A stretch of DNA of 32,000 nt from Candidatus Harpocratesius repetitus (lineage in GTDB: Archaea; Asgardarchaeota; Lokiarchaeia; Sigyniarchaeales; Promethearchaeaceae), in assembly GCA_021498095.1 (NCBI GenBank), contig JAIZWK010000001.1:2310001-2342000 (forward strand). Direction: 5' to 3'. The notes beneath the pieces were generated by a model. The model saw only the letters and a program-made list of their open reading frames with translations. It was not told the DNA's origin and ran no database searches. A program made the position numbers and the translations under genes. Of the stretch, positions 1 to 14,531 are shown in pieces (positions within the stretch are counted from its first letter, which is position 1; every line of letters starts with the position of its first letter).

Positions 1-710
1 CTATCCAATCTTTGTGACTTTGGTATTGGAACTACTCCTGTTTGAATACACCATCGGAGCATTAATTGTGCTGTTGTTTTATGATATTTTTCTGCTAATT
101 TTTTCAAACCTTCATGATGAAGCATATAACCATTTGTTAATGGAGAATAAGCTTCAAGAAGAATATTATTATTCTTGCAAAAAATGAGAAGTTCTGTGAG
201 ATTTAAAAATGGGTTGAACTCTACTTGGTTCACAAATGGAATTATGCCCGCGTTTTCTAAAATTTCATTCAAATGGGGAATGTAATAATTACTTACTCCA
301 ATCGCACGACATAATCCTTCATCATACAGATGTTCCAAAGCTTTCCATGTATCTTTGCGCTTCACGGGTACCGGCCAGTGAATTAAATAAAGATCGATAT
401 AATCTACTTGTAGTTTTTTCCGACTTCGTTCAAATGCCTCTAATGTCGATTCATAACCTTGTTCTGTATTCCAAACTTTAGAAGTGATAATAATTTCATC
501 ACGATTGATCTCTGATTCTCGAATGACATCACCAATTTCTTTCTCATTTCCATAAAATGAAGCAGTATCTATCAATCGATATCCGATTTTTAATGCATAG
601 CTTAAAACTTTTGTGAGTGTAGATCCTCTTAAAGCATAAGTTCCCAAACCTATTGGTGGGATTGATAACTCTTTTGTTAAAGAAATTCGAGAAGAGATTG
701 ATTCTGTCAT
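1..710 (-). CDS. Aldo/keto reductase (2,5-DKG reductase-like), 3' end outside window
   Basis: Not in the ORF track. Manual translation from ATG at 710 (AGGAG upstream) is open to the window edge: MTESISSRISLTKELSIPPIGLGTY...LIDTASFYGNEKEIG...TSKVW...DLYLIHWP...AIGVSNY...NQVEFNPF...EAYSPL...QLMLRW...PIPKS. The D/Y/K/H catalytic tetrad is present. Confidence 0.95.
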   Translation of the reverse strand, partial: MTESISSRISLTKELSIPPIGLGTYALRGSTLTKVLSYALKIGYRLIDTASFYGNEKEIGDVIRESEINRDEIIITSKVWNTEQGYESTLEAFERSRKKLQVDYIDLYLIHWPVPVKRKDTWKALEHLYDEGLCRAIGVSNYYIPHLNEILENAGIIPFVNQVEFNPFLNLTELLIFCKNNNILLEAYSPLTNGYMLHHEGLKKLAEKYHKTTAQLMLRWCIQTGVVPIPKSQRLD

Positions 711-959
711 CTAGATGCTCCTTTTACAGATATGTCAAAGAAGTAAAAATCCGAAATTCCATCGGATGCCTTCTTAATGAAATTTAACTCGATTCGCTCT
801 TATAAATATTATGCAAAAAACTATTTTTTTTCATTTTTTTTGATGAGATAATTATTACTTGATTATCATTTATTTAGAGAAAAAGTTATAAGTATTCCAC
901 ATAAATTATTTTATAATTACATTTGCGTACTTTAATTTAAAAAATAATTAGTTGATTCT

Positions 960-1154
960 ATGCAGGAATTTTCGAAATCTGAATCTGAACGCCTGAGTTT
1001 TACTGGCTCATCAACTAAACCTGATGAACGTGAGTTAATCCAAAAAAGAATTGTTATTATTGACCAGCGGATTAAATGGTTGATGAAAGTAAAAAATACT
1101 TTGGAAAATCAACTTCAAAATCTAGATCAAATCAATTTATTGAATAAATCTTAG
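960..1154 (+). CDS. Small hypothetical protein, predicted coiled coil
   Basis: 64-aa ORF occupying an otherwise empty intergenic gap, with an AT-rich TATA-like tract upstream and a heptad-like C-terminal half (IQKRIVIIDQRIKWLMKVKNTLENQLQNL). No family recognised. Confidence 0.45.
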   Translation: MQEFSKSESERLSFTGSSTKPDERELIQKRIVIIDQRIKWLMKVKNTLENQLQNLDQINLLNKS

Positions 1155-1343
1155 TAGATATTAATCAATTTGAATAGATTTCTGTGCTAACTTTATTAAT
1201 TATTATGCTGGTACTTTGGGAAGTTGTAAAAGATTCATTTTTATTATTAAATATCTCTTTCTTAGAGATAATAAGGAAAAAAACTATTGAATTAATAAGC
1301 AAAACTTCTAAAAACTAAAAAATTATGTCATAATAGATAAGAT

Positions 1344-2096
1344 CTATTCTTTTGAAAGGACAACTTCTTGCTTTAAAAGTTTCTCCTTAATCGGATCCCA
1401 GAAAATCTGATTGTAGGGTCCGCTGGTATTGATTTTTGTCCACCAAACCTTGAAATTATCTTGAGGACAAACATTCATACACGCGGCACATTTAATGCAT
1501 TTTTCATCATCAATTTCAATATGAATCTTTGATTCCCATGCTGGTTCCATTTCTTTAAAAGTAATGGCTTCCGTAGGGCATATTTGCTCGCATTTATGAC
1601 AATCACCAGGGCATTTATTCATGTAATATTTAATAAACTCATCTTTGTCATCTGGTATTTCATAAGTTACCTCGATTTTTCCTTCCCAGTAAATATTGGC
1701 ATCTCGTCCTAATTTAGAGCAAGGTACTTTTTGAATTTCCAATTTCGGAATTGAATTATGCTCAATAAGTTTAAGTGTTTCGGTAGGAACCAATTCACCA
1801 TCTTCATACAATTGAATAGCATCAAACGGGCAAAAAATTTGACACGTTCCGCACATAACACATAAATCAGGATCTACTGTATCTACTACAGAAGCATTCA
1901 GATCTTTGGGTTTCGATTCATAAACAGCAGCTGCTGGGCCAAATAAAATAGCATCTTTTGGACAGACAATTGAACATTGCCCACACCCAGTACATTTCAT
2001 TCGATCAAGAATCAAATCATATTGTTTTACTAGGTATTTATGGGTGATTTTGATTTCAGTATCATCTATTTTTTTTAATCGTTTAGGAAAGGCCAT
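1344..2096 (-). CDS. Polyferredoxin, 4x[4Fe-4S], FwdF/MvhB-like
   Basis: Four cluster motifs: CTGCGQCSIVCP, CVMCGTCQIFCP, CPGDCHKCEQICP, CIKCAACMNVCP. The C-terminal KINTSGPYNQIFW segment resembles FwdF termini. GAGG SD upstream. Confidence 0.88.
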   Translation of the reverse strand: MAFPKRLKKIDDTEIKITHKYLVKQYDLILDRMKCTGCGQCSIVCPKDAILFGPAAAVYESKPKDLNASVVDTVDPDLCVMCGTCQIFCPFDAIQLYEDGELVPTETLKLIEHNSIPKLEIQKVPCSKLGRDANIYWEGKIEVTYEIPDDKDEFIKYYMNKCPGDCHKCEQICPTEAITFKEMEPAWESKIHIEIDDEKCIKCAACMNVCPQDNFKVWWTKINTSGPYNQIFWDPIKEKLLKQEVVLSKE

Positions 2097-2187
2097 ATTG
2101 TTATCCTCGAATTTTTAAAGATAAAATTATGATTAAGAGATATTTATTTATAAAGTTGGGGAATAAAAAAGGGTAATGGTATATCCT

Positions 2188-2238
2188 TAGTTAGTTGGTT
2201 TAGTTGGTTAATTCGTTGGTTAATTCGTCGGTTGGTTA
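2188..2238. repeat. Imperfect short tandem repeat (AACCAAC-core units, x4) spanning the hdrB stop codon
   Basis: Minus strand reads TTAACCAACCGACGAA TTAACCAACGAA TTAACCAACTA AACCAACTAA. Confidence 0.7.
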
Positions 2239-4181
2239 AGTGCTGATAGATCCAGATCTCGCTCTAAATGAGTAAAAATTGGATCAACTGGAGTAAAGGG
2301 AGGTACTCCTTTTCGCTTTGGATATCTGAGAATACCGAGTGAAAATGGATCAATTCCCATCGCTAATCCCAAAAGTTGGGTTATATAGAGCACAGGAATG
2401 GAAAATGGTGCAGAAATCTGATCTTTATAGATACTATTAATTTCCATTTGTCCTAAATCGAATTGTAAATGACAGAATGGGCAGCAATCCACAATAATAT
2501 CTACTCCTGCTTTTCGCATCGATTCCAATTTGTCTCGAGTAAAGTCTAAAGAGACTTCTTTTTCAGAACCACGCAAGCCTCCACCTGCGCCACAACACAT
2601 TAACTTGTCTCTATAATCCACAGAAGTACAACCTGTCAACTCAACTAGTTCATCTAAGAAAGTTGGTGTTTCAAAATCATCTTTCCATGGCTTATTATGA
2701 GTTGGTTTCAAAATGTGGCATCCATAATGTACTGCGACTTTAAGTCCCAGATTTCGAGTTATCATTTTTTTAATTTTTTCAATACCTACATCATTATATA
2801 AAATCCAAACCAAGTGCTCGGCATCGACAATACCTTTAAATTCTTTTCCTATTTCTTTCAATTTGCTATTTACGAAATCTCGTTTTTCAGAATTGTGCTT
2901 TAATTCAGTGTTAACATCATTTAATGTGCCGTAACAACCATTACACATAATACAAAGATTTCGCTTAATATCTTCAGCAATCGTTATATTTCTTGCGCCT
3001 AATGTAAGCCATGTATCAATATCAAATGAACGGAATACTCCTGGTGCAGGGCAGCACCCTGCTCCTTCTAACTCGACAACCCCAACTTTTAATGCATTTA
3101 ATACGCTACGAGTAGCCGCATCAATGAAAGGGTAGCGATTAGGAATAACACATCCAAGGTACATTGCTACATTTACACCTTCTGGGTTCTCTTTTAGCAT
3201 ATTGTTTAAATTATTTTTTAACCATTCCGCTCCATGGGTTGTATAATTTTGTAATTGTTTTTTCCAAGGCCATAAGGTTGGATCTAATTTACGAACTTCA
3301 TCAAAGGCTTTCTTTGCTTCTTCCAGTTGATCTTGAGTCCAGTAAAGAATGGCTAAGTTTAACCAAGTTATGGAATTTACCTTTTTTGAATTTGATTCAG
3401 TATAATCAATAATTTTCTTAAGAGCAACTTCTGCATATGATATTTCTCCTAATCGAAATTGTGCTAAGGCGATATTATTCCATAAGGCTTGGAAATTGAT
3501 AAAATTGATTGGATCAAAAACAGGATGATCTTCAAGTAAGGTGAATTCATTAAGAGCATTTTGATATAAACCTTTCTGTGCTTCTATTGTACCTAAAAAG
3601 AAAGATATATATGCCCAGATTTTTGATTTGGAATATAATTTGTTATTCTTATTTTTTATTTCTTTTCCAACATTCTTTTTTATTCCATCTTTTTTATTCT
3701 TCACGTTTGTTTCTTGTTTTAAAATTTCCTTTGCTTCGTTTAGAAATTTTTCTGCGTAGTATATTTCATGGCGTTTAAAATGCAGAAATCCTAAATAGAA
3801 GAGAATTTCGGGAGATCCTGGAGAAAATTTATTCGCACTGGTGAGATAAAATAGTGCTTTTTCAAAACCATTACACATCAGATGGACTTTTGCTAATCCT
3901 ATTAAAGCTTCGATGTTTTTTCCATCTAACTTAAGTGCTTCATAATAATGATTATTGGCATCACGGTAATTCTCCAATATAAGAGCCAAATATCCCCTCT
4001 TCAAATATCCAAGAATATTGGTAGGATCTTTCTCAATCATCTTCTCAAAATAATAGCGCGCTTCGAGATATTTTTTCTGCTCAATATAGAGATCTCCAAG
4101 TTCGGAAAGATCTTCAATTGATTCTGCATATCTTCGAAGATGAAGGATTTTTTTATCTACTTCTTCCATAATAATTCTCAC
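2220..4181 (-). CDS. hdrB: Tetratricopeptide-repeat protein fused to heterodisulfide reductase subunit B
   Basis: N-terminal ~330 aa contain about 7 TPR-like repeats (e.g. LSELGDLYIEQKKYLEARYYFEKMIEKDPTN). C-terminal ~320 aa are a complete HdrB with two CCG domains (YLGCVIP, CCPAPG, CNGC, HYGCH, CCGAGGG, CCPFC). The start may be ATG at 4169. Confidence 0.92.
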   Translation of the reverse strand: MRIIMEEVDKKILHLRRYAESIEDLSELGDLYIEQKKYLEARYYFEKMIEKDPTNILGYLKRGYLALILENYRDANNHYYEALKLDGKNIEALIGLAKVHLMCNGFEKALFYLTSANKFSPGSPEILFYLGFLHFKRHEIYYAEKFLNEAKEILKQETNVKNKKDGIKKNVGKEIKNKNNKLYSKSKIWAYISFFLGTIEAQKGLYQNALNEFTLLEDHPVFDPINFINFQALWNNIALAQFRLGEISYAEVALKKIIDYTESNSKKVNSITWLNLAILYWTQDQLEEAKKAFDEVRKLDPTLWPWKKQLQNYTTHGAEWLKNNLNNMLKENPEGVNVAMYLGCVIPNRYPFIDAATRSVLNALKVGVVELEGAGCCPAPGVFRSFDIDTWLTLGARNITIAEDIKRNLCIMCNGCYGTLNDVNTELKHNSEKRDFVNSKLKEIGKEFKGIVDAEHLVWILYNDVGIEKIKKMITRNLGLKVAVHYGCHILKPTHNKPWKDDFETPTFLDELVELTGCTSVDYRDKLMCCGAGGGLRGSEKEVSLDFTRDKLESMRKAGVDIIVDCCPFCHLQFDLGQMEINSIYKDQISAPFSIPVLYITQLLGLAMGIDPFSLGILRYPKRKGVPPFTPVDPIFTHLERDLDLSALNQPTN

Positions 4182-4277
4182 TAATTACGAAAAACAATAA
4201 GTTAATTTTCGTAGGATAATATTCATCTGGCGCTAATCACTATTTAAGATTTTTTTTATTGGATTATGGAATTTTGA

Positions 4278-4297
4278 GTGAAATTCGTGTGAAATTC
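4278..4297. promoter_or_regulatory. GTGAAATTC direct repeat (11-bp period) in the hdrB/hdrC divergent intergenic region
   Basis: Copies at 4278-4286 and 4289-4297. The repeat is seen directly; a regulatory role is inferred from position only. Confidence 0.25.
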
Positions 4298-4602
4298 TAA
4301 AATGCTGAATGTAGCTTTTTTTTAGGAAGATTTTGATCACTTTTCGAAAGAGAATTTAACAATTCAAGTAAAAATAAATGAATTATTCAGATAATCGTAC
4401 TTTTCTTGGAGTTAGCGAATGAACCTCAAATTAAGTTATGTTTTTCACCAAATCCAATAAATGAAGCTTTTTAAACATTCATTTTAACACTACACCATCA
4501 AATACCCATTTTAATTTCATGTTGCCTATTTGCATGGATTTAAAATAAAAACACCATTTTCATGATTTCTTGTGGTATGAATAAGGTGTTTTTCTCACTC
4601 TC

Positions 4603-5496
4603 ATGAGGGAAATAAATATGGAAAAAATCCAACGGAACATTATTGTTCACATTTCGGATATTATCAGCGAAGAAATAATAAAAGACGAGGCAATGGCTTT
4701 TGTCAGGGCATGTTTTCAATGTGGGACTTGCTCTGGAGGCTGTCCATCTGGACGTAGAACTGCAATTCGTACTCGTCAAATTATTCGTCGGGTAATTTTA
4801 GGATTGGAAGAAGTGCTTTCTTCTGATGATATCTGGCTCTGCAGTACGTGTTATACATGTTTTGAAAGATGTCCAAGAAGTATACCTGTTACTGACATAA
4901 TTATCAAATTGCGAAATTTAGCCACTCAACGAGGATATATGAAACCCCCACATAAAGCAGTTACTCATATTTTAGCTGATACAGGCCATGGTGTTCCGTT
5001 GGGAACGCAAAAAGGTGGTGAACCGAATAATTGGAGTCAATTACGGGCATCATATGGCTTACCGGACATTCCTCCAACAACACACAGTCACCCAGAAGCT
5101 GTTAAAGATATTCAGATATTGATGCACGCTACGAATTTTGATAAATTGGTTGATTGGAAACCAAAAAATACCGAACTGAAGCCAAAGGTTAATGAGAAAA
5201 GTGAAGAAAAAAGTGAGGGAAAAAATGAGGGAGAAAGTAAGGTAAAAAGAAAAGCAAAATCAAAATCAAAATCCCAATCAAAAGTCAAAGAAGAACTTAA
5301 ACCTAAAAAAGAAGTAGAAATCAAAAAAGAACTTGAGATCAAAACAGATTCCCAAACCAAAACCGAATCCAATATCAAATCTGAATCTGAAACAAAGAAA
5401 ACAAGCACAAATAAAAAAACTGTGACAAAAAAGAAAAAGGGTTTAAAGAAAAAATTAAAAAAAACCCGAATTTCCAATAAAAACAAAAAAAAGTAA
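4603..5496 (+). CDS. hdrC: Heterodisulfide reductase subunit C with a 112-aa Lys-rich C-terminal extension
   Basis: CFQCGTCSGGCP and WLCSTCYTCFERCPR motifs, followed by DIIIKLRNLA and TGHGVP typical of HdrC. The start may be ATG at 4618 after GAGG. Confidence 0.92.
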   Translation: MREINMEKIQRNIIVHISDIISEEIIKDEAMAFVRACFQCGTCSGGCPSGRRTAIRTRQIIRRVILGLEEVLSSDDIWLCSTCYTCFERCPRSIPVTDIIIKLRNLATQRGYMKPPHKAVTHILADTGHGVPLGTQKGGEPNNWSQLRASYGLPDIPPTTHSHPEAVKDIQILMHATNFDKLVDWKPKNTELKPKVNEKSEEKSEGKNEGESKVKRKAKSKSKSQSKVKEELKPKKEVEIKKELEIKTDSQTKTESNIKSESETKKTSTNKKTVTKKKKGLKKKLKKTRISNKNKKK

Positions 5497-5686
5497 AAAG
5501 TAAAAAATAGCTTAAACTTCGAAATTCTAAAGAATATTGTCCAATACTGCTAAATCATAAGAATTCGTGTTTGAATTAAGAAAAAAACTTCAATGTCGAA
5601 TGGATCATTATCCTTCGCTTAAAAAAATAGATCACAATAATAATTTCAATAATATAAATAATTATAAAAAATGAGTAGAGTAAACT

Positions 5687-7702
5687 ATGAGTAAATCTAA
5701 AATAAATATAATTTCCCCTTCTAATAATTCAGAAAGCACCGAAATTCGCATTGGTGTTTATCTCTGCCATTGTGGGGTTAATATAGGCGGTGTTATCAAC
5801 ATGGATGAAATGGTTAAATTTGCTCAGAAACTTCCAAATGTTGTAATAGCACGCCAGTATAAATTCTACTGTTCTGATAACGGACAAGCTGAAATTGCTC
5901 GCGATATTCGTGATGGATTAGTTAATCGCGTTGTGGTTGCTGCTTGTAGTCCCCGCATGCATGAAAGTACTTTTCGGCGCGTTTTAGTTGATGAGGGTTT
6001 AAACCCATTTTATTTTGTCCAAGCAAATATTCGAGAACATGCCACTTGGGTAAATATGAATGATCCTGCTGGTGCCCAACGAATTGCCCAAGATCATGTT
6101 CGTATGCAAGTGGCAAAAGCAAGAGAGCTCCGCGCCTTGAAACCACAAAAAGTCATGGTAAAGCCATCTGCTTTAATTATCGGCGCAGGTATTGCTGGAA
6201 TTAATACTGCGTTAGATTTGGCAAATCAAGGTTTTCATGTATATTTAGTTGAAAAAGAACCGACTATTGGGGGTCATATGGCACAATTGGATAAAACTTT
6301 TCCCACAATGGACTGTTCTTCATGTATTCTTACTCCAAAAATGGTCGAAATTTCACGTAATCCTAACATAACAGTTATGGCTTATTCAGAAATAGAACAT
6401 GTAGATGGATATGTTGGAAATTTTCAAGTGCAAATTCGAAAGAAGGCTCATTATGTGGATCAACTGAAATGCACAGGCTGTGGGGAATGTGCCCAACATT
6501 GCCCTGTTTCTGTTGGAAATGAATTTGATTTGGGACTCAGTCATAGAAAAGCCATTTATATTCCATTTCCTCAAGCTGTTCCCGGATTGTATACTATTGA
6601 TATGGAGCATTGCATAAAATGTGGCATTTGTGCATCTACCACCGTTTGTGAACCTCAAGCCATAAATTTTGATGATCAAGATGAAATTGATACAATTGAA
6701 GTCGGAACCATTATTGTGGCTACCGGATATGATCCAATCGATGTATCTAATCTTGGAAATTATGGATATGGTCGATTTGAAAATGTGATTACAGGGCTTG
6801 AAATGGAAAGGAATCTTAGCAGTACAGGTCCTAATCTGGGTCATCCTGTGCGTCCTTCAGATGGAACTTCCCCCAAGTCGATTGTATGGATTCAATGTGT
6901 TGGAAGTCGGGATACTAGAGAAGGTTATCATCCATACTGTAGCCGAGTTTGTTGCATGTATGCGATTAAACAAGCCCGGCAGTATAAGGAAAAACATCCT
7001 GAAGCTCAATGTTATATATTCTATATAGATATTCGCGCATTCGGTAAGGGCTATGAAGAATTTTATGAATTAGCCAGTCATGAATATGGTATCAAATTTA
7101 TGCGGGGTCGTTTAGCAGAAATTCAAGAAAATCCTGATAAATCGCTGTTAATTCGCGCTGAAGATACATTTCTTGCTCAACCAATTGAAATTAATGTAGA
7201 CATGGTTGTTCTTTCAATAGGTTTGGAAACTACTCATGATTCTGGTAAAATCGCTTCTATGCTGGCAATTCAAAAATCCACTGATGGTTTCTTCATGGAA
7301 GCTCATCCCAAACTTCGTCCAGTTGATTCTCTTACGGATGGAATATTTATTGCTGGAGTTGCTCAAGGACCAAAAGATATTCCAGATGCTGTTTCTCAAG
7401 CAAAAGGTGCTGCTGCGGGTGCTGCTATCTTAATGGCAAAAGGGGAGGTGGAAGTGGAGCCATATTTTTCAATTGTACAACCTGCTCTCTGTTCTGGTTG
7501 TAGATCTTGTATTAATCAATGTCCATTTGGAGCAATTACATTTGATGAAATCTTGCAAATTGCTCATATAAATCCAATTAAATGCAAAGGATGCGGAACT
7601 TGCGCATCTACTTGTCCATCGAATGCAATTCTTCAAAATCATTTTACAACAAAACAATTAATGGCTATTATTGATGGTGTTTTAGGAGATTATCAAGTAT
7701 GA
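5687..7702 (+). CDS. hdrA: Heterodisulfide reductase subunit A (flavin-based electron-bifurcating subunit), Cys form
   Basis: RIGVYLCHCG N-terminus, GAGIAG FAD motif, LDKTFPTMDCSSC, inserted ferredoxin (CTGCGECAQHCP, CIKCGIC), QCVGSRD...CSRVCCMY, and a C-terminal ferredoxin (CSGCRSCINQCP, CKGCGTCASTCP). Confidence 0.97.
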   Translation: MSKSKINIISPSNNSESTEIRIGVYLCHCGVNIGGVINMDEMVKFAQKLPNVVIARQYKFYCSDNGQAEIARDIRDGLVNRVVVAACSPRMHESTFRRVLVDEGLNPFYFVQANIREHATWVNMNDPAGAQRIAQDHVRMQVAKARELRALKPQKVMVKPSALIIGAGIAGINTALDLANQGFHVYLVEKEPTIGGHMAQLDKTFPTMDCSSCILTPKMVEISRNPNITVMAYSEIEHVDGYVGNFQVQIRKKAHYVDQLKCTGCGECAQHCPVSVGNEFDLGLSHRKAIYIPFPQAVPGLYTIDMEHCIKCGICASTTVCEPQAINFDDQDEIDTIEVGTIIVATGYDPIDVSNLGNYGYGRFENVITGLEMERNLSSTGPNLGHPVRPSDGTSPKSIVWIQCVGSRDTREGYHPYCSRVCCMYAIKQARQYKEKHPEAQCYIFYIDIRAFGKGYEEFYELASHEYGIKFMRGRLAEIQENPDKSLLIRAEDTFLAQPIEINVDMVVLSIGLETTHDSGKIASMLAIQKSTDGFFMEAHPKLRPVDSLTDGIFIAGVAQGPKDIPDAVSQAKGAAAGAAILMAKGEVEVEPYFSIVQPALCSGCRSCINQCPFGAITFDEILQIAHINPIKCKGCGTCASTCPSNAILQNHFTTKQLMAIIDGVLGDYQV

Positions 7703-8166
7703 TAAAATCAAAAATTGAAGACAATCCTTCTTCCGAAGTGATTGATAAAGATTTTGAACCATTCATATTGGGAATATTCTGTAATTGGTGTACCTATACT
7801 GGATGCGATCAAGCAGGTACTTCGAGAATGCAACGCCCTGCAAATTTGCGCGTTATGCGTGTTATGTGTAGTGGCCGTGTTGAACCAGAAATGGTTATTG
7901 AAGCTTTAAAACGTGGGGCAGATGGTGTTCTTATTGGTGCTTGTCATATCGGGGACTGTCACTATGTAAATGGAAACCACAAGACAGTTCGGCGTATGCC
8001 GGTTTTAGTAAACCTTATTGAACAATATGGTTTTAATCCTAATCGTGTGTGGTTAAGACATATATCAGCATCAGAAGGTGCGGAATTAACTGAAATTGTT
8101 AAAGAATATGTGAAAATACTAAAAGAATTAGGCCCCAATCCGTTGAAAAATCAAAAATCAAGATAA
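7699..8166 (+). CDS. mvhD: MvhD/FlpD [2Fe-2S] subunit (hydrogenase delta), Cys form
   Basis: FCNWCTY...RVMCSGRV...GADGVLIGACHIGDCHYVNGN. ATGA overlap with the hdrA stop indicates translational coupling. Confidence 0.95.
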   Translation: MIKSKIEDNPSSEVIDKDFEPFILGIFCNWCTYTGCDQAGTSRMQRPANLRVMRVMCSGRVEPEMVIEALKRGADGVLIGACHIGDCHYVNGNHKTVRRMPVLVNLIEQYGFNPNRVWLRHISASEGAELTEIVKEYVKILKELGPNPLKNQKSR

Positions 8167-8428
8167 TATTTTTTTAATTTCTTTAATTTGGTGAAAGCAC
8201 TTTTTTACTATGGTAAAATCTATCTTATCTTGAATAATTGTCAATTTTTCTCGATGTTTTAGAAGAACCTATCAAAATATTTGCAGATTTTATATTTTTC
8301 ATTATTCTTACCTAAAATAGTTTGTATGATCTTTATAAGGTGCACAAATAAAAATTCTAATAGTAAAGCGTATTTTACTACCTATATCATGTGATGAGTG
8401 ATATCTTTTCTCCACTCACAAACCGGAT

Positions 8429-9514
8429 TTGAGGTGTCGAAAAATAACCGCAGAATCAAAATCGAATAATTTATCTTCGAAATTTTTTCATACTCGGGAA
8501 TTTTTTCCCATTGAAGTAAATTTTGGCGATAAAGAAATTATCAAAATAACCAAGCGCCCGCGCAAGACTACTACTGAAATTGTTGATATTTATGCAAACG
8601 GCTATCATATTGGCATGTTTGTAGGAATTGAACGGGTGGGAAATGAATTAAAATTCGGACCAACAGGATTAAATAAATCTCATATATATCGAAATATTCT
8701 CGATTATGTATTTGTTCGTTTACTAGAATATTTTGGATTGACTGGTGTGGCTCAAATTAGTATTGATGTTCCCGAAGATACTGAATTCAAGTCTTTTCTG
8801 CTGCAATTAGGATTTATTCCTAAAGATAATCAACTTATACTGGAATTGACTGAAGAAAATTTAAAAAAATTGATGAATTCTCTCGAAAAACATCCTTTTG
8901 AAATAAAATCTCAAGTTGGGCAATTCCAAAATGTAATTTCTTTTAATCTTGATGATCCTGATGAAAAAACTGTATTAAAAATGGTTGATCATATTGTAGA
9001 GAAAATTAAAAACATGGATCCTATCGGGAAAGAATTCTGGGATAACAGAAAAGTTATGCAGTTAAATTATTATTTAACTATGGCAGTATTAAATAGAAAT
9101 CAAATCATTCCCGATGAATTTCTGGAAACAAGCTTGAAAACTATTATTGCATCACTTGATACGTTTAACCGAGAAGCCTATTTGGAAGAAATATTTGTCG
9201 CTTTAGATGGTGGTAAAGCATTTGGTATGGATTATATTCAGAATATTCTTACTAAATTGCAAGAATTAGTTCCTGAAGAAATAAAAGTATTGAATAAGGA
9301 TCATCTACGTGATTGGGTCCAAAAAAACATGCCTGCTTGGATTTTAAGTGATGAAATTGAAAATAAAGCACGTGAAGAATTAAAAGCTAAATCTCGCTTG
9401 AAGTTGGAAGATTTCGGCACATCGATAAAAGATAGCATGAAAGATGTTATAACTGCCCTAATCGATCATTATAATGGAGAAAGAATCTTCTTTGGAATGA
9501 ATAATCGATTATAA
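8429..9514 (+). CDS. Hypothetical protein; N-terminal half resembles a degenerate GNAT fold, C-terminal half helical
   Basis: 361-aa ORF. HIYRNILDYVFVRLLEYFGLTGVAQISIDVPEDTEFKSFLLQLGF follows the GNAT motif A-helix/beta5/'FY.KLGF' pattern but lacks the R/QxxGxG/A loop. Confidence 0.6.
   Translation: MRCRKITAESKSNNLSSKFFHTREFFPIEVNFGDKEIIKITKRPRKTTTEIVDIYANGYHIGMFVGIERVGNELKFGPTGLNKSHIYRNILDYVFVRLLEYFGLTGVAQISIDVPEDTEFKSFLLQLGFIPKDNQLILELTEENLKKLMNSLEKHPFEIKSQVGQFQNVISFNLDDPDEKTVLKMVDHIVEKIKNMDPIGKEFWDNRKVMQLNYYLTMAVLNRNQIIPDEFLETSLKTIIASLDTFNREAYLEEIFVALDGGKAFGMDYIQNILTKLQELVPEEIKVLNKDHLRDWVQKNMPAWILSDEIENKAREELKAKSRLKLEDFGTSIKDSMKDVITALIDHYNGERIFFGMNNRL
8431..8436 (+). promoter_or_regulatory. 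Shine-Dalgarno GAGGTG
   Basis: Matches the archaeal anti-SD. It lies 7 nt upstream of an in-frame ATA at 8444 and overlaps the TTG chosen by the ORF track. Confidence 0.5.
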
Positions 9515-9554
9515 AAAAAAAAGGAAATCTATAATAAATAAAAAAGAGTAAAAT

Positions 9555-11453
9555 TTGGTGAAAATTATGGTAGAAGGATATACTCAAACTTGTGTACGCA
9601 TCAATTTAACCACGGGTGAAATTAAAAAAGAAACCTTAAGCCAAGATTTTTGCAAGCAGTACATTGGTGGCTATGGTTTTGTTACAAAAATATTATGGGA
9701 TGAATGTCCGAAAGGTGCAGATGCATTTGACCCCCGAAATCCATTTGTAATGGCAATTGGACCGTTTCCAGGAACAATTGTACCCACTTCATCCAAATAC
9801 TGTGTAGGTGCAAAATCTCCTTTAACAAGACGAATTGGATTTGCGATCAGTTCTGGATCATGTGGTGCGCAAATGCGAAGGGCAGGAATTGATTTGATTA
9901 TTCTTACTGGCAAAGCTCCTGAACCTGTCTTCATTTTCTTCGATGATGATGCTATTAACATCATACCGTGTAAGGATACCCTTTGGGGAAAAGATATCTG
10001 GACCGTTGAAGAAGAAATTCGCAATATGTATGGTGATCATCGTATTTCTGTTATGGGTATTGGTCAAGCAGGAGAAAATTTAGCAAAACTAGCTTGCATT
10101 ACTAATGATAGAGCTCGACAAGCAGGACGAACAGGATTGGGTGCAGTAATGGGCTCAAAAAATGTTAAAGCAATGGCTTTTCGAGGAACTAAATCCATTA
10201 AAGTGGCAAAACCGAAAGAATTTATGGAAAAAGCAAAAGAATTAATTCAATTAGCAAATGGAAAAGATACTTTAAAATACCGTGATTTAGGCACACCAAT
10301 AAATGTAATGAAATTTAACGATCTCGGTGTTTTACCAGTAAAAAACTTCCAAACAGGTTATTGGGATAAAGCTGATGCAATTTCTGGAGAAACTATGGAT
10401 GAAAAATGGGTTGTAAAAAAGACTGGATGCAGTCAATGCCCAATTGCTTGTGATCATTTATGTGCTACCAAACCAGATGATCCAGATTATCCAAACGTCG
10501 TTTCAAGTGTAGATTATGAAAGTATTTATGCCCTCGGTTCTGTTTGTTTAATCGATCATTTTCCAGCTATAATTAAAATGGTTGAAATGTGCGATAAGTA
10601 CGGAATTGATACCATGACCGGTGGTACCACTTTGGGATTTGCTATTGAAGCTTATGAAAAGGGATATATAACCAAAGAAATGCTCGGAGATAATCCTGTT
10701 TATAAAAATGGTCTTCAATGGGGAGATTATAAGGCAGTTGTTCAACTTATTGAAGATATATGCTTTCGATCAACTCCAGCTGGAGATCTTTTAGCTGATG
10801 GTTCACGTGATGCAGCTAAAAAGTTGGGAGGAGACGCTTGGAAATTCTCGTGTGAAATTAAAGGAATGGGTATTCCGGGCTATGAATTAAAAGGATTAAC
10901 TACTGCATCTATTGGGTTTGCTGTCTCACTGAGAGGTGCATGCCATCTTCGAAACGGGTCATATGGTTATGATATGAAAAAGAAATTCGATCGGAAAAAA
11001 TACGATGAACTTGACAAACGGGGTCAAGCTTTAGCTGGACAAGATGCCTTTATGGCGATTATTGATTCATTAGTTGTGTGTAAATTTACGCGAGGAATAT
11101 ATCACCGTGGTTTACCAGAAATTGCAGAAGTATATGAAATGGTAACTGGTATTCCCATGACTGGTGAAGAAATCGAACTTGCAGGCCATAGAATTCATGA
11201 TTTGGCAAAATGTTTCAATATTCGAGAATGTCAAGTAGAAGGAGTTGAACCTATGAGTGAAGATTCACTTCCATGGCGAAATTTCCATGAACCTAATCTC
11301 GATGGACCTACAAAAGGATGGTACAATGATGAAAAAGGATTCTGGGAAGGAATCAAGCAATATTATCTTGCCCGTGGATGGGATGAACGTGGTTATCCGA
11401 AAGAAGAAACCCTCAAAACTCGAGGCTTAGATTTTGTAATAGGAAAAATTTAG
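9555..11453 (+). CDS. aor: Tungsten-type aldehyde:ferredoxin oxidoreductase (AOR/WOR family)
   Basis: GAKSPLT, GRTGLGAVMGSKNVKA, GCSQCPIAC, DKYGIDT, KGMGIPGYE, RGACHLR, DSLVVCKF, YYLARGWDERGYPKEETL. The start is probably ATG at 9567 after GGTGA. Confidence 0.95.
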   Translation: MVKIMVEGYTQTCVRINLTTGEIKKETLSQDFCKQYIGGYGFVTKILWDECPKGADAFDPRNPFVMAIGPFPGTIVPTSSKYCVGAKSPLTRRIGFAISSGSCGAQMRRAGIDLIILTGKAPEPVFIFFDDDAINIIPCKDTLWGKDIWTVEEEIRNMYGDHRISVMGIGQAGENLAKLACITNDRARQAGRTGLGAVMGSKNVKAMAFRGTKSIKVAKPKEFMEKAKELIQLANGKDTLKYRDLGTPINVMKFNDLGVLPVKNFQTGYWDKADAISGETMDEKWVVKKTGCSQCPIACDHLCATKPDDPDYPNVVSSVDYESIYALGSVCLIDHFPAIIKMVEMCDKYGIDTMTGGTTLGFAIEAYEKGYITKEMLGDNPVYKNGLQWGDYKAVVQLIEDICFRSTPAGDLLADGSRDAAKKLGGDAWKFSCEIKGMGIPGYELKGLTTASIGFAVSLRGACHLRNGSYGYDMKKKFDRKKYDELDKRGQALAGQDAFMAIIDSLVVCKFTRGIYHRGLPEIAEVYEMVTGIPMTGEEIELAGHRIHDLAKCFNIRECQVEGVEPMSEDSLPWRNFHEPNLDGPTKGWYNDEKGFWEGIKQYYLARGWDERGYPKEETLKTRGLDFVIGKI

Positions 11454-12038
11454 GTGATGATTATGTCAATGAAAGCAAATAATACGCCCAAAACAGAAAA
11501 AAATTCAAGCATTGATACTTCTGCAATTATGCATAAAATTCTTGTTGTGGATCCTGCCCGTTGTACAGGATGCGAAATTTGTGAGTCCGTATGTGGAATG
11601 GTTCACGACGATGTTTTTAATCCAATGAATTCTCGCATCCATCGAGTCCGCATTGAACCTGTAATCAATTCCAGCATAAGCTGCGTTTCATGTTATGATC
11701 CTGATTGTGTAAAAGCTTGTCCTCTTAGTGCTATCACAAAAAATCTTGAAACAGGAATTTTAGAAGTAGATCAGAATAAATGCGATGGTTGCGGAGCTTG
11801 CATGAGAGCATGCTCTTTTGGAGCGATCACTGTGCATACGAAAAACAAAAAGGCGATCATGTGCGATATGTGTTCAAGCACGATTTATGGGGAACCTCAA
11901 TGTGTGGAATATTGTCCTAAAGGTGCGATTTTTATTGAGGAAATTGATCCGAATGTTAATGAAGATCGTTTAGAGACTTTACGAAAGATTCTTGAACGCG
12001 GTTTTCCGCAACCACCTGAAGGGGAAATTTTAAATTAA
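11454..12038 (+). CDS. 4x[4Fe-4S] electron-transfer protein (DmsB/CooF/AorA-like), probable AOR small subunit
   Basis: CTGCEICESVC, CVSCYDPDCVKACP, CDGCGACMRACSFG, CDMC...PQCVEYCP. It directly abuts the aor stop. Confidence 0.9.
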   Translation: MMIMSMKANNTPKTEKNSSIDTSAIMHKILVVDPARCTGCEICESVCGMVHDDVFNPMNSRIHRVRIEPVINSSISCVSCYDPDCVKACPLSAITKNLETGILEVDQNKCDGCGACMRACSFGAITVHTKNKKAIMCDMCSSTIYGEPQCVEYCPKGAIFIEEIDPNVNEDRLETLRKILERGFPQPPEGEILN

Positions 12039-12048
12039 GGAATATTCA

Positions 12049-12070
12049 TTTTTCTTTTCTTTCACTTTTT
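12049..12070 (+). terminator. Oligo-T tract, probable archaeal terminator of the aor operon
   Basis: TTTTTCTTTTCTTTCACTTTTT beginning about 10 nt after the stop at 12038. Confidence 0.4.
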
Positions 12071-12902
12071 AACTTTTATCTCCTACATCTAAAATGGATT
12101 TAGCACATAAATTAAGCCCGGTTTCCCACAAACGTAGCAGATAGAACTTGGCAGACCATTTTGTACGGCTCATTTTCTCCAGTTTTTTTCGAATATGTCG
12201 ACGTCGAGAATTCCACGGAACAATATTGTGAATGCGACTCCGTTCTTGTACTAAAAGATCCAGCTGTTTATGTCGCTGCCATTGATTATACAATTCTAAT
12301 CATGCGATCCAATAAAATTGTCGTCGTGTAGATTTTTGGGAACGACTCTTATGTAAAAACTGGTATTTCGTATCTCGAAAACCATTTTCAATCCTCCATC
12401 GTTCATGATAGTCCTTTGCAAACTTGATAAATTTACCGTTCAACTTCGTAGGATCTTCTCCTGGTGCAATCGAGATGGTAAAGAAGGTGACAGCATGAAT
12501 TAATTTATTCTTTTTCTTTTTCAAACGAATTTTGTGATCATAGTGTGAATAACAGAGGCGATAAAGTCGTTCTTCCTCAGTATTGCTGAATTTTTTCCGT
12601 CGTTTGGCTTTCCTGTATTTGAGTTGGCGTGGATTTTTTTTAGTCGCTTGTTGGAATTTGAAATACTTATCTTCAGCGAGTTTTAACTGCTCCCGAATAG
12701 AAAGCAATCTATTTTGGATTGAAAAAGCTTCATTTTTTATAGATTCAAATGATCTGGATTTTCCTTTTTTATATTCATCTACTAAAACAACCTGGGCCAC
12801 GGGAATTTTATAATATCCATCTCCATATGGAACATTATATTTACGGCATAAATCTCGAAGCTTCGGCGGAGAACTAATAAATTTTTCGTTCGATTTTAAA
12901 TT
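12069..12902 (-). pseudogene. IS4-superfamily transposase remnant (5'-truncated, internal TGA)
   Basis: The track ORFs 12300-12800 and 12069-12293 are one frame separated by TGA at 12302-12300 (YWIA*LELYNQW). The frame stays open upstream to 12902 with no start or N-terminal domain. It has a perfect YREK signature, Y-HE-R-WRI-E-NGFRDT-K (12410-12366). Confidence 0.8.
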
Positions 12903-12977
12903 TCATCCTAAATTTTCAAAAACTTTTAATGAAGAATTTTAATAATATTTAACGAGATGATGATTTTTAAAGATAAA

Positions 12978-14531
12978 GGATCAATTAAGAGAATCCCTAT
13001 TTTTTAAATTATTCCTAAATCATCTTTCAAAGAATTATTTTTGGCAATCTCTTTGAAATTTAGGACCAAAACGTATATATTCTTAAGCATCTATTTCAAG
13101 TCAGTTCGTAAACCGATGTTTTGGAAATGTTTAAATCGTGTCGATCATGTGTTATCCTATGGTAGGACGCCCTAAAAAGGAATATCCTCCATTATTCGAG
13201 CCATTATGCATTAATTTCGAAGATGGAAGGGAAGAAATTCTAGAAATAATACCTGTTTTGTGCCCAGAATGTCGCTCTGCTGTCGTCGGAGTATATGGCA
13301 CTCATAAACGGAAAGTAAGAAGGGTTCAATATTATAAGTGTAAAAATCCTGCATGTTCATTCGATAAAACTCACAATACTGCCCGACAATTTGCCTTGAC
13401 TACATCTGGAGGTGTCAGAGAAGTGCTTGACGGCATGCTCGGCAAGATGACAAAAGAAATCATGAAAGGAAAAATCAGCCAGAGTGCTATAGCCGAAAAA
13501 TATGGAGTTTCTGATGCTCTTATCTGCTATTTACGTTCTAAGATAGAGAAGACAATTTCAAATCTGCAGGGATTAAAAAATCTGGTTGTGGAATTAACGA
13601 ATGATACTGCGGTTGCAGAAGATGAAACTTTCATTCGAATTAACAGTGTACCGTTTTATATTATCATGTTCACGGGCTATACCAGTAATAAAATTCTCGG
13701 AATAAAGGTTTTAAAAACGAGGAACGAAAAAGACATCCGTGAAGTTTTTGACAGAGCGAATCGAAATACAAAATTGCCGATAAATGTAATTACTGCCGAT
13801 GCATGGGGTGCTACACAAACAATGAGCAAGAATTTAATGCGTAAAATTACCTTAGTAATTCATAAGCATAAAAAACCCTATGATAAGGCTGGTATTTGGC
13901 ATATTGATTATGAAAAAACGAAGCGGATAATCACTAAAATAGGTCTTAAAACCAATTTTTTTAAAAAACGGGGCAAAAGAGAGTATTTTTACTTAGTGAT
14001 GAAGAAAATTTAAGTCTACCAGTACCAAAAAAGCGGGAAAGACCAAAAGGAGTGAAGAACAAGCAAGGAAAACAAAGAAAAAATCCAAAACCAAAAATGA
14101 AGCGAGGACGGAAAGGCCTCTTTACAGTTTTTGACAGAGGAAAACGGGGATATGCGAAAATTGAACCTTCTCGTAAAACTCTAAAATTGGCAAGAAGTGT
14201 GCTTCCTGCAGTTGCAGCTGCTTTTAGGGAAACACAAGACTTATTTTGGAAAAAGTCTATATCAAATAATCTGGCGGAGAATATAAATAGTGTGATTGAG
14301 ACTCGTGTTCATTTAACTGGTCCTAAAACACCTGAGGGTTTAGAACAGCGACTTCGGGCATTTATTATCGCCAAAAATAACCCAGAAATCTTAGAAATAA
14401 CATTTGTTTCGCACAAATTTAATACAAAAATTCTTTTTAATGAATGGAATAATTCAGGAATTAAACGGTTATTTCAATTGAATGAAAATTTGGGGAAAAA
14501 AAATCAAACCCAGGTGTCAGTGAATTGATCC
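12978..14531. mobile_element. Insertion sequence, 1554 bp, DDE type, family unassigned (IS1/IS6/ISL3-like features)
   Basis: Imperfect terminal inverted repeats GGATCAATTAAGAGAATCC (12978-12996) and GGATCAATTCACTGACACC (reverse complement of 14513-14531) match at 14/19, with the first 9 perfect. The transposase stop lies inside the right TIR. No target-site duplication is visible. Confidence 0.75.
13138..14528 (+). pseudogene. DDE transposase split by a -1 frameshift between 13965 and 14010
   Basis: ORF1 has a Zn ribbon (CPEC...YKCKNPAC), an HTH (SQSAIAEKYGVS), DETF and TADAW. ORF2 has SNNLAENINS (catalytic E). The ORF2 frame is open from 13965, overlapping the end of ORF1, so one frameshift gives a ~460-aa protein. 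Confidence 0.8.

Follow-up and report, generated by a model that had tools for sequence, protein, structure and literature searches.

In several genera of Lokiarchaeia, genes for a tungsten-type aldehyde:ferredoxin oxidoreductase (AOR) and its small subunit AorA lie beside genes for HdrABC, MvhD and a polyferredoxin, an adjacency that has been re-created repeatedly and that accompanies a dedicated clade of HdrA. This AOR/Hdr pairing, which is conserved in both cultured Asgard archaea, suggests that aldehyde oxidation may feed Hdr in place of hydrogen. We consider it quite possible, though short of probable, that electrons enter MvhD-HdrA from AOR-AorA, which would stand in for MvhAG, and go on to reduce the polyferredoxin and a disulfide. 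How much energy strict anaerobes have to spend is set by flavin-based bifurcating enzymes, and the known inputs to Hdr-type complexes are hydrogenase, formate dehydrogenase, F420H2 and NADH (Flx). If true, aldehyde would join these as a new class of input, giving, besides WorABCSL, a second independent coupling of tungsten aldehyde oxidation to bifurcation. Such a system would also be at work in cultured archaea related to the eukaryotic host lineage: Promethearchaeum syntrophicum MK-D1 possesses and expresses the cluster, and Lokiarchaeum ossiferum possesses it too; models that derive eukaryotes from syntrophy build on the electron flow of these organisms to H2 or formate. The 'MvhADG-HdrABC' of these two organisms is assumed rather than demonstrated, and the question bears on the identity of the Asgard heterodisulfide, the Hdr substrate being called an "unidentified heterodisulfide" in Asgard papers (PMC11291895).

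Gene content of the locus

All eight genes named by the first-pass annotation of the window (the whole 32,000-nucleotide stretch of DNA that was analysed) are present at the positions given there, with hdrC-hdrA-mvhD-orf361-aor-aorA on the plus strand and hdrB-polyferredoxin on the minus strand. The predicted HdrA, HdrB, HdrC and MvhD proteins resemble those of methanogens. HdrA (5687-7702, plus strand) aligns over residues 18-667 to methanogen HdrA (8rvu; E = 9.5e-252) and has a complete domain set, comprising an N-terminal cluster, a thioredoxin-reductase-like FAD domain, and inserted and C-terminal ferredoxin domains; it is predicted to be a flavin-based electron-bifurcating subunit of canonical build. 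Since the NCBIfam HdrA2 model includes a fused MvhD, HdrA scored below its cut-off (875 bits against 1100). The [2Fe-2S] adaptor MvhD (7699-8166, plus strand), whose gene overlaps hdrA by 4 nt, matches PF02662 at 1.1e-45 and retains the conserved Cys columns. HdrC (4603-5496, plus strand) matches TIGR03290 over residues 34-183 (186.4 bits, cut-off 160) and carries two [4Fe-4S] motifs; its Lys-rich C-terminal tail is restricted to this genus, and in relatives from other genera the alignment stops near residue 190. HdrB (2220-4181, minus strand; 653 aa) matches TIGR03288 over residues 338-617 (392.5 bits, cut-off 345), aligns to methanogen HdrB at E = 1.6e-98 with its two CCG motifs aligned, and bears an N-terminal TPR array of about 310 aa (TPR families at residues 24-302), a fusion that is kept in genera g1, g5, g6 and g7. 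On direct reading of the sequence, the intergenic region between the divergent TPR-hdrB and hdrC genes (4182-4602) is a possible shared promoter region, and it had no match among Rfam families. The MvhB-like polyferredoxin (1344-2096, minus strand), recognised by Fer4 families and a FwdF-like match, has four [4Fe-4S] motifs and 17 Cys and is presumed to be the low-potential acceptor. It belongs to an ancestral hdrCBA-mvhD-polyferredoxin operon that is present in genomes G003, G004 and G005. Next to it, an aldo/keto reductase gene truncated by the window start (3-710, minus strand; PF00248, 1.8e-50) is conserved downstream of the polyferredoxin gene in G002, MK-D1 and L. ossiferum; it may or may not belong to the unit.

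The large subunit, AOR (9555-11453, plus strand), is predicted to be a canonical tungsten-type aldehyde:ferredoxin oxidoreductase (AorB/WorL). PF02730 (AFOR_N, 1.8e-66) and PF01314 (AFOR_C, 3e-102) together span its full length, and its closest solved structure is P. furiosus AOR (1aor, 1.1e-104). Alignment to 1aor_A revealed that catalytic T243, E313, Y427 and H448 and the [4Fe-4S] ligands C288, C291, C295 and C494 are all conserved (P. furiosus AOR numbering, residue list after PMC13328260). A BamB identity was rejected, 4z3w_A being the weakest among nine solved matches (1.5e-43, residues 13-431 only) and the aldehyde-type catalytic residues being present. The aorA gene (11454-12038, plus strand) starts at the base right after the aor stop and encodes an AorA/WorS-type 4x[4Fe-4S] subunit with 16 Cys invariant across 28 sequences. 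Its best solved matches are 9mqx_E (WorS), 8c0z_C (AorA) and 6x6u_B, the WOR5 small subunit being among them, and in our alignment its C-terminal GFP...GEILN tail is specific to the Hdr-linked clade. The product of orf361 (8429-9514, plus strand), for which neither a Pfam or NCBIfam match nor a cluster motif was found, has 32 homologues, all in Promethearchaeia, and is an AOR-associated protein restricted to Lokiarchaeia. Its AF2 model (pLDDT 85.6) has a GNAT-like domain at the N-terminus and a helical domain at the C-terminus, GNAT and DUF1122 proteins giving weak matches in fold comparison. The gene stays with aor-aorA in G005, where adjacent Hdr is absent; that orf361 travels with AOR was not among the points of the first-pass annotation.

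Conservation of the AOR-Hdr linkage

A synteny survey, proposed earlier as a check on the linkage, had a favourable outcome: the aor linkage is conserved across genera, has been re-created, and tracks a dedicated HdrA clade. The eight-gene layout is kept in three genera (genomes G001, G002 and G013, L. ossiferum and P. syntrophicum MK-D1), and in genera g5 and g6 every plus-strand gap is at most 83 bp. HdrA lies within 10 kb of AOR in 27 of the 31 well-flanked species loci, meaning those flanked by 8 kb or more on each side, and on the AOR strand in 48 of 48 linked loci, counts that overstate independence because the genomes are related and share synteny by descent. By our own arithmetic (six AOR paralogues, about five HdrA loci, 4.36 Mb), the chance that any AOR sits within 2 kb of HdrA on the same strand is about 1%. 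The adjacency exceeds what chance would give, and relatives show the arrangement again.

Moreover, the AOR-AorA/HdrA-MvhD adjacency takes several independent forms within the order, in which both the HdrA paralogue and the gene order vary. In family f3, the genes after a clade-B AOR-AorA pair encode a selenocysteine-type HdrA-MvhD, an FrhB-like protein and a polyferredoxin, while the order in G003 and G018 is aorA-aor-hdrA. G008 carries the orthologous hdrA-mvhD-orf361 followed by a clade-B AOR, and in G021 hdrB-hdrA-mvhD-polyferredoxin comes directly after an AOR paralogue of 29% identity. The AOR-linked HdrA clade has an SH-aLRT of 98%, and its members are AOR-linked without exception, including those whose AOR has been swapped. 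Its sister paralogue is linked to HdrD together with NuoE, NuoF and an FdhA-like protein, and the outgroup (pre-duplication) HdrA in G005 lies directly downstream of mvhG-hdrC-hdrB-mvhA. From this phylogeny, it looks as though donor modules have been exchanged in cis.

Electron input to HdrA and alternative readings

In an aldehyde-driven Hdr system, the two adjacent units would work together. Aldehydes would be oxidised by AOR at a tungstopterin site, and electrons would pass through the four [4Fe-4S] clusters of AorA and then MvhD to the bifurcating FAD of the dedicated HdrA paralogue. For this direction of flow, we infer a physical association in which AOR-AorA would dock in the place held by MvhAG or FdhAB in methanogens. 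One electron would leave the flavin through the HdrA ferredoxin domains for the MvhB-like polyferredoxin or free ferredoxin, and the other would travel through HdrC to TPR-HdrB, where a disulfide would be reduced. With aldehyde very scarce and acid abundant, the exergonic disulfide branch would still drive both aldehyde oxidation and ferredoxin reduction, as has been proposed for Bfu-type WorABCSL. It counts against this scheme that the acid/aldehyde couple lies below ferredoxin even under standard conditions, where no bifurcation is needed on thermodynamic grounds.

The first-pass annotation had suggested that AOR and its 4x[4Fe-4S] subunit could be either the input or the output module of the Hdr complex. 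The conserved linkage and the dedicated HdrA clade support this suggestion in part, and input is the better fit, since no other MvhD donor lies in cis and the polyferredoxin is kept as a likely low-potential acceptor. Output fits less well because a reversed Hdr module cannot reach the acid/aldehyde potential. Co-transcription, however, was weakened. The gaps at 5497-5686 and 8167-8428 that had prompted caution are both real, and there is now more reason for it: an oligo-T run (7 T or longer) lies directly 3' of mvhD in 6 of 6 genomes examined, and the plus-strand spacer between mvhD and orf361 (8167-8428) also holds a TATA-like, promoter-like block upstream of orf361 that is common to three genomes of this genus. 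Therefore hdrC-hdrA-mvhD and orf361-aor-aorA may be on separate transcripts. In MK-D1, all eight genes (DSAG12_02801-02808) have expression values, and Imachi et al. group them under 'Heterodisulfide reductase complexes' without interpretation (PMC7015854, Supplementary Table 4).

The oligo-T run and the promoter-like block count against AOR-AorA as input and favour a possible, if rather doubtful, alternative, namely that the two units are neighbours and not one complex. AOR-AorA and orf361 would then be a self-contained WorLS-type enzyme reducing free ferredoxin, HdrABC-MvhD-polyferredoxin would serve MvhAG (1.4957-1.4998 Mb) or another donor, and the link would be merely metabolic or regulatory through the ferredoxin pool, or inherited synteny. 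Stand-alone aor-aorA-orf361 in G005 and stand-alone aor-aorA in families f5 to f7 point the same way, since they imply that the unit can work without an adjacent Hdr; many family f3 loci also have unrelated opposite-strand genes between aorA and hdrA, which again counts against the input role. Whole-genome family searches agreed with the first reading that mvhAG, fdh and flx are absent from the window, the nearest matches lying outside it: the NiFe large subunit at 1.4986 Mb, Oxidored_q6 at 1.4957 and 3.0702 Mb, molybdopterin oxidoreductase at 0.555 Mb and FlxA-type DHODB_Fe-S_bind at 0.314, 1.187 and 2.828 Mb. An FrhB-like gene lies at 2.3440 Mb, 2 kb past the window end. The mvhG-hdrC-hdrB-mvhA cluster at 1.4957-1.4998 Mb is not co-encoded with the HdrA-MvhD of the window. 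Because this sole NiFe hydrogenase cluster has no hdrA or mvhD of its own, here as in MK-D1, the hydrogenase may use the HdrA-MvhD of the window in trans; the extra hdrCBA-mvhD set that lies 5 kb upstream of the hydrogenase in G002 was not found in this genome. That the pre-duplication HdrA of G005 sits beside mvhAG genes is also in keeping with separate units, as is the assumption of an MvhADG-HdrABC complex by Imachi et al. despite MK-D1 mvhAG being likewise apart from any hdrA/mvhD (PMC7015854). However, mere neighbourhood is at odds with the repeated placement of AOR-family genes beside HdrA-MvhD in differing paralogues and orders, with the shared strand in every linked locus, and with the AOR linkage of the whole dedicated HdrA clade even after AOR exchange. 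The other Hdr clusters in these genomes, moreover, each have their own donor module in cis.

Improbable in our view is a wiring like that of class II benzoyl-CoA reductase (BCRII), in which AOR-AorA would be a low-potential output on the HdrA ferredoxin domains, an external donor (reduced ferredoxin or polyferredoxin, or hydrogenase via MvhD) would reduce the flavin, and HdrBC disulfide reduction would pay for taking acid to aldehyde (about -580 mV), which the neighbouring aldo/keto reductase, conserved in three genera, could take on to alcohol as an electron sink: AOR, AorA, HdrA, MvhD and HdrBC do mirror BamB, C, E, F and D, and BamBC does receive its low-potential electron from HdrA-type BamE via an inserted ferredoxin domain, but the cluster has no donor module such as BamGHI (the genome's sole NuoF-family match is at 1.947 Mb), the part of low-potential acceptor is already taken by the retained polyferredoxin, the AOR is of aldehyde and not BamB type, and in acetogens AOR with reduced ferredoxin reduces acids without bifurcation.

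Returning to AOR-AorA as input, we put forward a broader proposal that, taken whole, is somewhat unlikely. Lokiarchaeia would have, in Hdr form, a so far undescribed equivalent of the bifurcating Class IV tungsten oxidoreductases, with AOR-AorA as input to a dedicated HdrABC-MvhD-polyferredoxin complex. The conserved C-terminal GFP...GEILN tail of AorA may tether AOR-AorA to the TPR array of HdrB, and amino-acid fermentation would supply the aldehydes that reduce both ferredoxin and a thiol/disulfide carrier.

Comparison with known systems

The nearest precedents are BCRII and WorABCSL, both absent from the first-pass annotation. To our knowledge, BCRII is the sole characterised AOR-family enzyme wired to an Hdr-type flavin. 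As in the present locus, an AOR-family tungsten subunit and a polyferredoxin small subunit are co-encoded with an HdrA-type flavoprotein, an MvhD-type adaptor and an HdrBC-type module. In Bam[(BC)2DEFGHI]2 of Geobacter metallireducens, the AOR-family unit is wired to the HdrA-type flavin, and the low-potential electron passes through the BamE inserted ferredoxin domain to BamBC (bioRxiv 10.64898/2026.04.10.717634; PDB 4z3w = BamBC). In contrast, the AOR described here matches 1aor (1e-104) far better than 4z3w (1.5e-43, residues 13-431), AorA has four clusters where BamC has three, and HdrA is a single canonical protein where BCRII has a fused double HdrA. The methanogen-like HdrB and HdrC are two separate proteins, HdrB with its TPR array; MvhD has no selenocysteine, and BamGHI (NuoE, NuoF, NuoG-like) are missing from the window. 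Assignment as a class II benzoyl-CoA reductase was rejected, as neither a BamB-type subunit nor BamGHI occurs in the window.

In WorABCSL, a Class IV tungsten oxidoreductase of Acetomicrobium mobile and Eubacterium limosum, aldehyde is the bifurcation donor (PMC12318220, PDB 9mqx), and its WorS (9mqx_E) is the best solved match to AorA. There, however, the module is of Bfu/HydBC type with NAD as high-potential acceptor, whereas here it would be of Hdr type with a disulfide. A Class IV assignment was also rejected, Bfu-type WorABC beside WorSL not being found in the window. Apart from benzoyl-CoA reductase, a 2026 classification of tungsten oxidoreductases contains no WorLS + HdrABC class (PMC13328260).

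Likeness to methanogen MvhAGD-HdrABC and FdhAB-MvhD-HdrABC (5odc, 8rvu, 7bkb) extends to HdrA (E = 1e-251), HdrB (1e-98), the close HdrC and MvhD, all cluster motifs and the MvhB-like polyferredoxin, but the present cluster has neither hydrogenase nor formate dehydrogenase, its HdrB carries a TPR array, and the host is not a methanogen. Finally, AorABC of Aromatoleum aromaticum (8c0z) shares the AorB-AorA pair and a polyferredoxin wire to a FAD subunit; its flavoprotein is the NAD-linked, non-bifurcating AorC, whereas the adjacent flavoprotein here is HdrA with MvhD.

Gene content and transcription units of the locus

Genes were called from an ORF listing together with Pfam and NCBIfam scans, and every gene named in the first-pass annotation was recovered in its place. 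The minus strand carries a polyferredoxin of 250 aa with four [4Fe-4S] motifs (1344-2096) and an HdrB of 653 aa (2220-4181), whose first ~310 residues form TPR repeats and whose C-terminal 280 residues match TIGR03288 (392.5 bits, cut-off 345); against methanogen HdrB it aligned at 1.6e-98 with both CCG motifs matched. The plus strand encodes HdrC (4603-5496; TIGR03290, 186.4 bits, cut-off 160), HdrA (5687-7702), which aligned with methanogen HdrA from end to end (E = 9.5e-252), and MvhD (7699-8166; PF02662, 1e-45), whose gene overlaps hdrA by 4 nt. These are followed by orf361 (8429-9514), the large subunit of a tungsten aldehyde oxidoreductase, AOR (9555-11453), and its small subunit, the 194-aa iron-sulfur protein AorA (11454-12038), which begins at the first base after the aor stop. 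Searches for the relevant gene families across all 4.36 Mb of the genome bore out the annotation's further observation that mvhAG, fdhAB and flx genes are absent: the window contains no hydrogenase, molybdopterin, Flx-type, FrhB-type or NuoF-type gene, and the nearest of each lie outside it. The sole FrhB-like gene of the genome lies 2 kb beyond the window end (L032:1754-2863).

AOR is predicted to be a canonical aldehyde-type enzyme. Its closest solved structure is P. furiosus AOR (1.1e-104), with which it shares T243, E313, Y427 and H448 as well as all four cysteines that ligate the cluster. We ruled out an identity as BamB, the catalytic subunit of class II benzoyl-CoA reductase, since the protein is of the aldehyde type and BamB was the weakest of nine solved matches. 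The small subunit is assigned to the AorA/WorS type: among solved structures it is matched best by WorS of WorABCSL (9mqx_E), AorA (8c0z_C) and the WOR5 small subunit, and its 16 cysteines are invariant across 28 sequences.

Because it carries no cluster motif, the product of orf361 is more likely to be an accessory protein than to act as a redox subunit. It has no family in Pfam or NCBIfam, and its 32 homologues are confined to Promethearchaeia. The predicted structure (pLDDT 85.6) combines a weakly GNAT-like N-terminal domain with a helical C-terminal domain; every score in a protein-atlas search was below 0.9, and Foldseek searches of the PDB with the N-terminal domain gave GNAT-like and DUF1122-like matches (best E = 3.5e-4, TM 0.2-0.58) that were too weak to name a function, so that assignment was dropped.

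Several smaller features were recorded at the locus. HdrC ends in a Lys-rich tail of ~112 aa (window 5158-5496) that is seen in this genus only, HdrC in genera g5 and g6 stopping at ~190 aa. An aldo/keto reductase gene (3-710, minus strand) lies 3' of the polyferredoxin gene here, in a second genome of the genus (G002), in Promethearchaeum syntrophicum MK-D1 and in Ca. Lokiarchaeum ossiferum; it is a third aldehyde-related gene kept at the locus. Beyond aorA, a 291-aa ORF at 13138-14013 (plus strand) weakly matches an IS6-family transposase (E = 5e-4); neither it nor its neighbours (12300-12800 and 14052-14528) have counterparts in relatives' loci, so synteny stops right after aorA. The remaining window genes are unrelated, and window 1-13000 gave no Rfam match to RNA elements.

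The annotation had left co-transcription across the intergenic gaps open. Directly after mvhD, all six genomes examined have an oligo-T run (7 T or longer), the sequence at which archaeal transcription usually terminates. The 262-bp mvhD-orf361 spacer (8167-8428) contains a TATA-like block, CTTTTTCATT...CTTTATAA...AAATAAAAATTCTAATAG, ~100 nt upstream of orf361 and conserved in the three genomes of the genus, which is probably a promoter or operator. Given the oligo-T run and this block, the hdrC-hdrA-mvhD and orf361-aor-aorA halves may be separate transcripts.

Conservation of the AOR-Hdr linkage

Relatives were found with the AOR and HdrA proteins and their neighbourhoods were then fetched. 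A wider contig survey yielded almost exclusively close Lokiarchaeia-type relatives, and the linkage is accordingly described within the class. The eight-gene layout is complete in both other genomes of the genus, in Ca. L. ossiferum, and in MK-D1 and its relatives; in the Lokiarchaeum ossiferum and MK-D1 genera the gaps between the six plus-strand genes are at most 83 bp. The AOR orthologue group, found in 121 of the 400 genomes of the phylum that were searched (one of the 121 lying outside the class), divides into two sister clades. In the second (clade B, mostly family f3), AOR-AorA has a different HdrA-MvhD pair downstream on the same strand, 0.2 to 8.6 kb away and in some loci beyond unrelated opposite-strand genes, and an FrhB-like gene and a polyferredoxin gene follow that pair. 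Both HdrA and MvhD of these pairs contain selenocysteine, MvhD having two in-frame TGA codons. In f3 genomes (L015, L016, L035, L041-L045) these codons are 51 codons apart, and the FrhB-like protein encoded after HdrA-MvhD, beside AOR-AorA, has 379 aa.

Other arrangements were also found. Two genomes (G003, G018) have the order aorA-aor-hdrA, several f3 genera carry a split hdrA-mvhD upstream of aor, and in another genome (G008) an AOR of clade B comes after the orthologous hdrA-mvhD-orf361. At L060:6815-15139 of genome G021, a distinct, 29%-identical AOR paralogue lies directly upstream of hdrB-hdrA-mvhD-polyferredoxin; a 437-aa molybdopterin oxidoreductase follows, and a 4-HFC-P synthase gene lies just upstream. 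The halves are separated in G005, where aor-aorA-orf361 stands alone and hdrC-hdrB-hdrA-mvhD-polyferredoxin, with an HdrB free of TPR repeats, lies directly downstream of mvhG-hdrC-hdrB-mvhA. Families f5 to f7, from the class's other orders, and some of the f3 genera have AOR-AorA without a linked Hdr. Overall, HdrA was encoded within 10 kb of AOR in 48 of 80 species-representative loci, on the AOR strand in all 48, and in 27 of the 31 loci flanked on either side by 8 kb or more, counts in which related genomes are not independent. Despite this non-independence, the many differing arrangements argue for selection over inertia. The synteny survey thus favoured the proposed AOR-Hdr association, which spans genera in several arrangements.

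A dedicated HdrA lineage

The seven AOR-linked HdrA proteins form one clade in the HdrA tree (98% SH-aLRT). In its sister clade, the genes facing HdrA-MvhD encode an HdrD-like protein, NuoE, NuoF and an FdhA-like protein, a set that resembles the BamDEFGHI module of benzoyl-CoA reductase minus BamBC; this paralogue was not found in the source genome. The set occurs in L. ossiferum (L065:8597-18887) and at loci L064 and L066, with a 972-aa Fer2/molybdopterin (FdhA/NuoG-like) protein. Outside these two clades, the HdrA that branches next is the one encoded beside the hydrogenase in G005. MK-D1 has, in addition, an Flx-type cluster in which HdrA and MvhD are fused and HdrB again carries a TPR array (L057:12399-14237); its genes encode HdrC, an FrhG-like protein, the hdrA::mvhD fusion, FloxB, FloxA and this second TPR-HdrB. 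The tree and the neighbouring modules together indicate that each HdrA-MvhD lineage in these archaea has its own partner module in cis, which here is AOR-AorA.

The sole NiFe hydrogenase of the source genome, mvhG-hdrC-hdrB-mvhA (C1:1495707-1499832; L028:4708-8832), comes without hdrA or mvhD, as does the same four-gene cluster of MK-D1 (DSAG12_03951-03954). It must therefore borrow HdrA-MvhD from elsewhere, possibly the AOR-linked pair. G002 has an additional hdrCBA-mvhD-polyferredoxin set 5 kb upstream of its hydrogenase that was not found in the source genome. At 3.068-3.075 Mb (L027:4118-10662) the source genome encodes hdrC-hdrB-hdrA-mvhD with a 430-aa Oxidored_q6 (MvhG-like) protein, a small Fer4 protein and a DsrE-like protein, no large subunit lying alongside the MvhG-like protein; DSAG12_01145-01150 of MK-D1 is the same set, near TusD and DsrE-type sulfur-transfer genes.

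A candidate electron route and known systems

In the simplest filling of roles, AOR-AorA would be the donor docking on MvhD, and HdrA would bifurcate the electrons received through MvhD, passing the low-potential electron to polyferredoxin or ferredoxin while HdrC/TPR-HdrB would reduce a putative disulfide. When aldehyde is micromolar and acid millimolar, the potential of the acid/aldehyde couple moves up towards that of ferredoxin, and an exergonic second branch would be useful; the same reasoning has been put forward for WorABCSL. Alternatively, by analogy with the wiring of benzoyl-CoA reductase, AOR could be the low-potential output of the complex, an arrangement against which stands the absence of any donor module from the cluster. 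A reverse, confurcating Hdr was ruled out, since merged ferredoxin and thiol electrons would lie far above the potential of the acid/aldehyde couple.

For the donor arrangement, a predicted complex of HdrA 15-671, MvhD 16-155 and AorA 25-194 (score 0.00, mark 0.32) spoke neither for nor against binding. AorA proteins encoded beside the AOR-linked HdrA clade have in common a C-terminal tail (window 11994-12038) of the form GFP...GEILN, or GFP-x(0-4)-G-x-[ILM]-[LFY]-N in alignment A4; it is missing from clade-B and unlinked AorA, including the unlinked G005 protein. The TPR array on HdrB is kept in genera g1, g5, g6 and g7, and the tail-bearing genera have it. TPR arrays commonly bind C-terminal peptides, and the AorA tail may be a ligand of this one; given the second TPR-HdrB in the MK-D1 Flx-type cluster, the array is not specific to the AOR-linked set.

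Our literature search found no functional interpretation of the AOR-Hdr pairing, only a supplementary-table listing. Imachi et al. 2020 (PMC7015854) gave expression values for DSAG12_02801-02808, which they grouped as 'Heterodisulfide reductase complexes' and left uninterpreted; aldehydes and AOR go unmentioned in the main text of their paper. A Lokiarchaeon metatranscriptome preprint reported expression of HdrABC and a tungstopterin AOR with MvhADG undetected, its authors suggesting that Hdr may operate differently there. A 2026 classification of tungsten oxidoreductases (PMC13328260) has no WorLS-Hdr class besides benzoyl-CoA reductase. The gene arrangement first described at the locus is confirmed, and the original proposal that AOR serves this Hdr complex is partly supported, any physical coupling of the two being putative. 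Judged from sequence, the locus is an Hdr-type analogue of the Class IV tungsten oxidoreductases or, set against class II benzoyl-CoA reductase, its aldehyde-type analogue.
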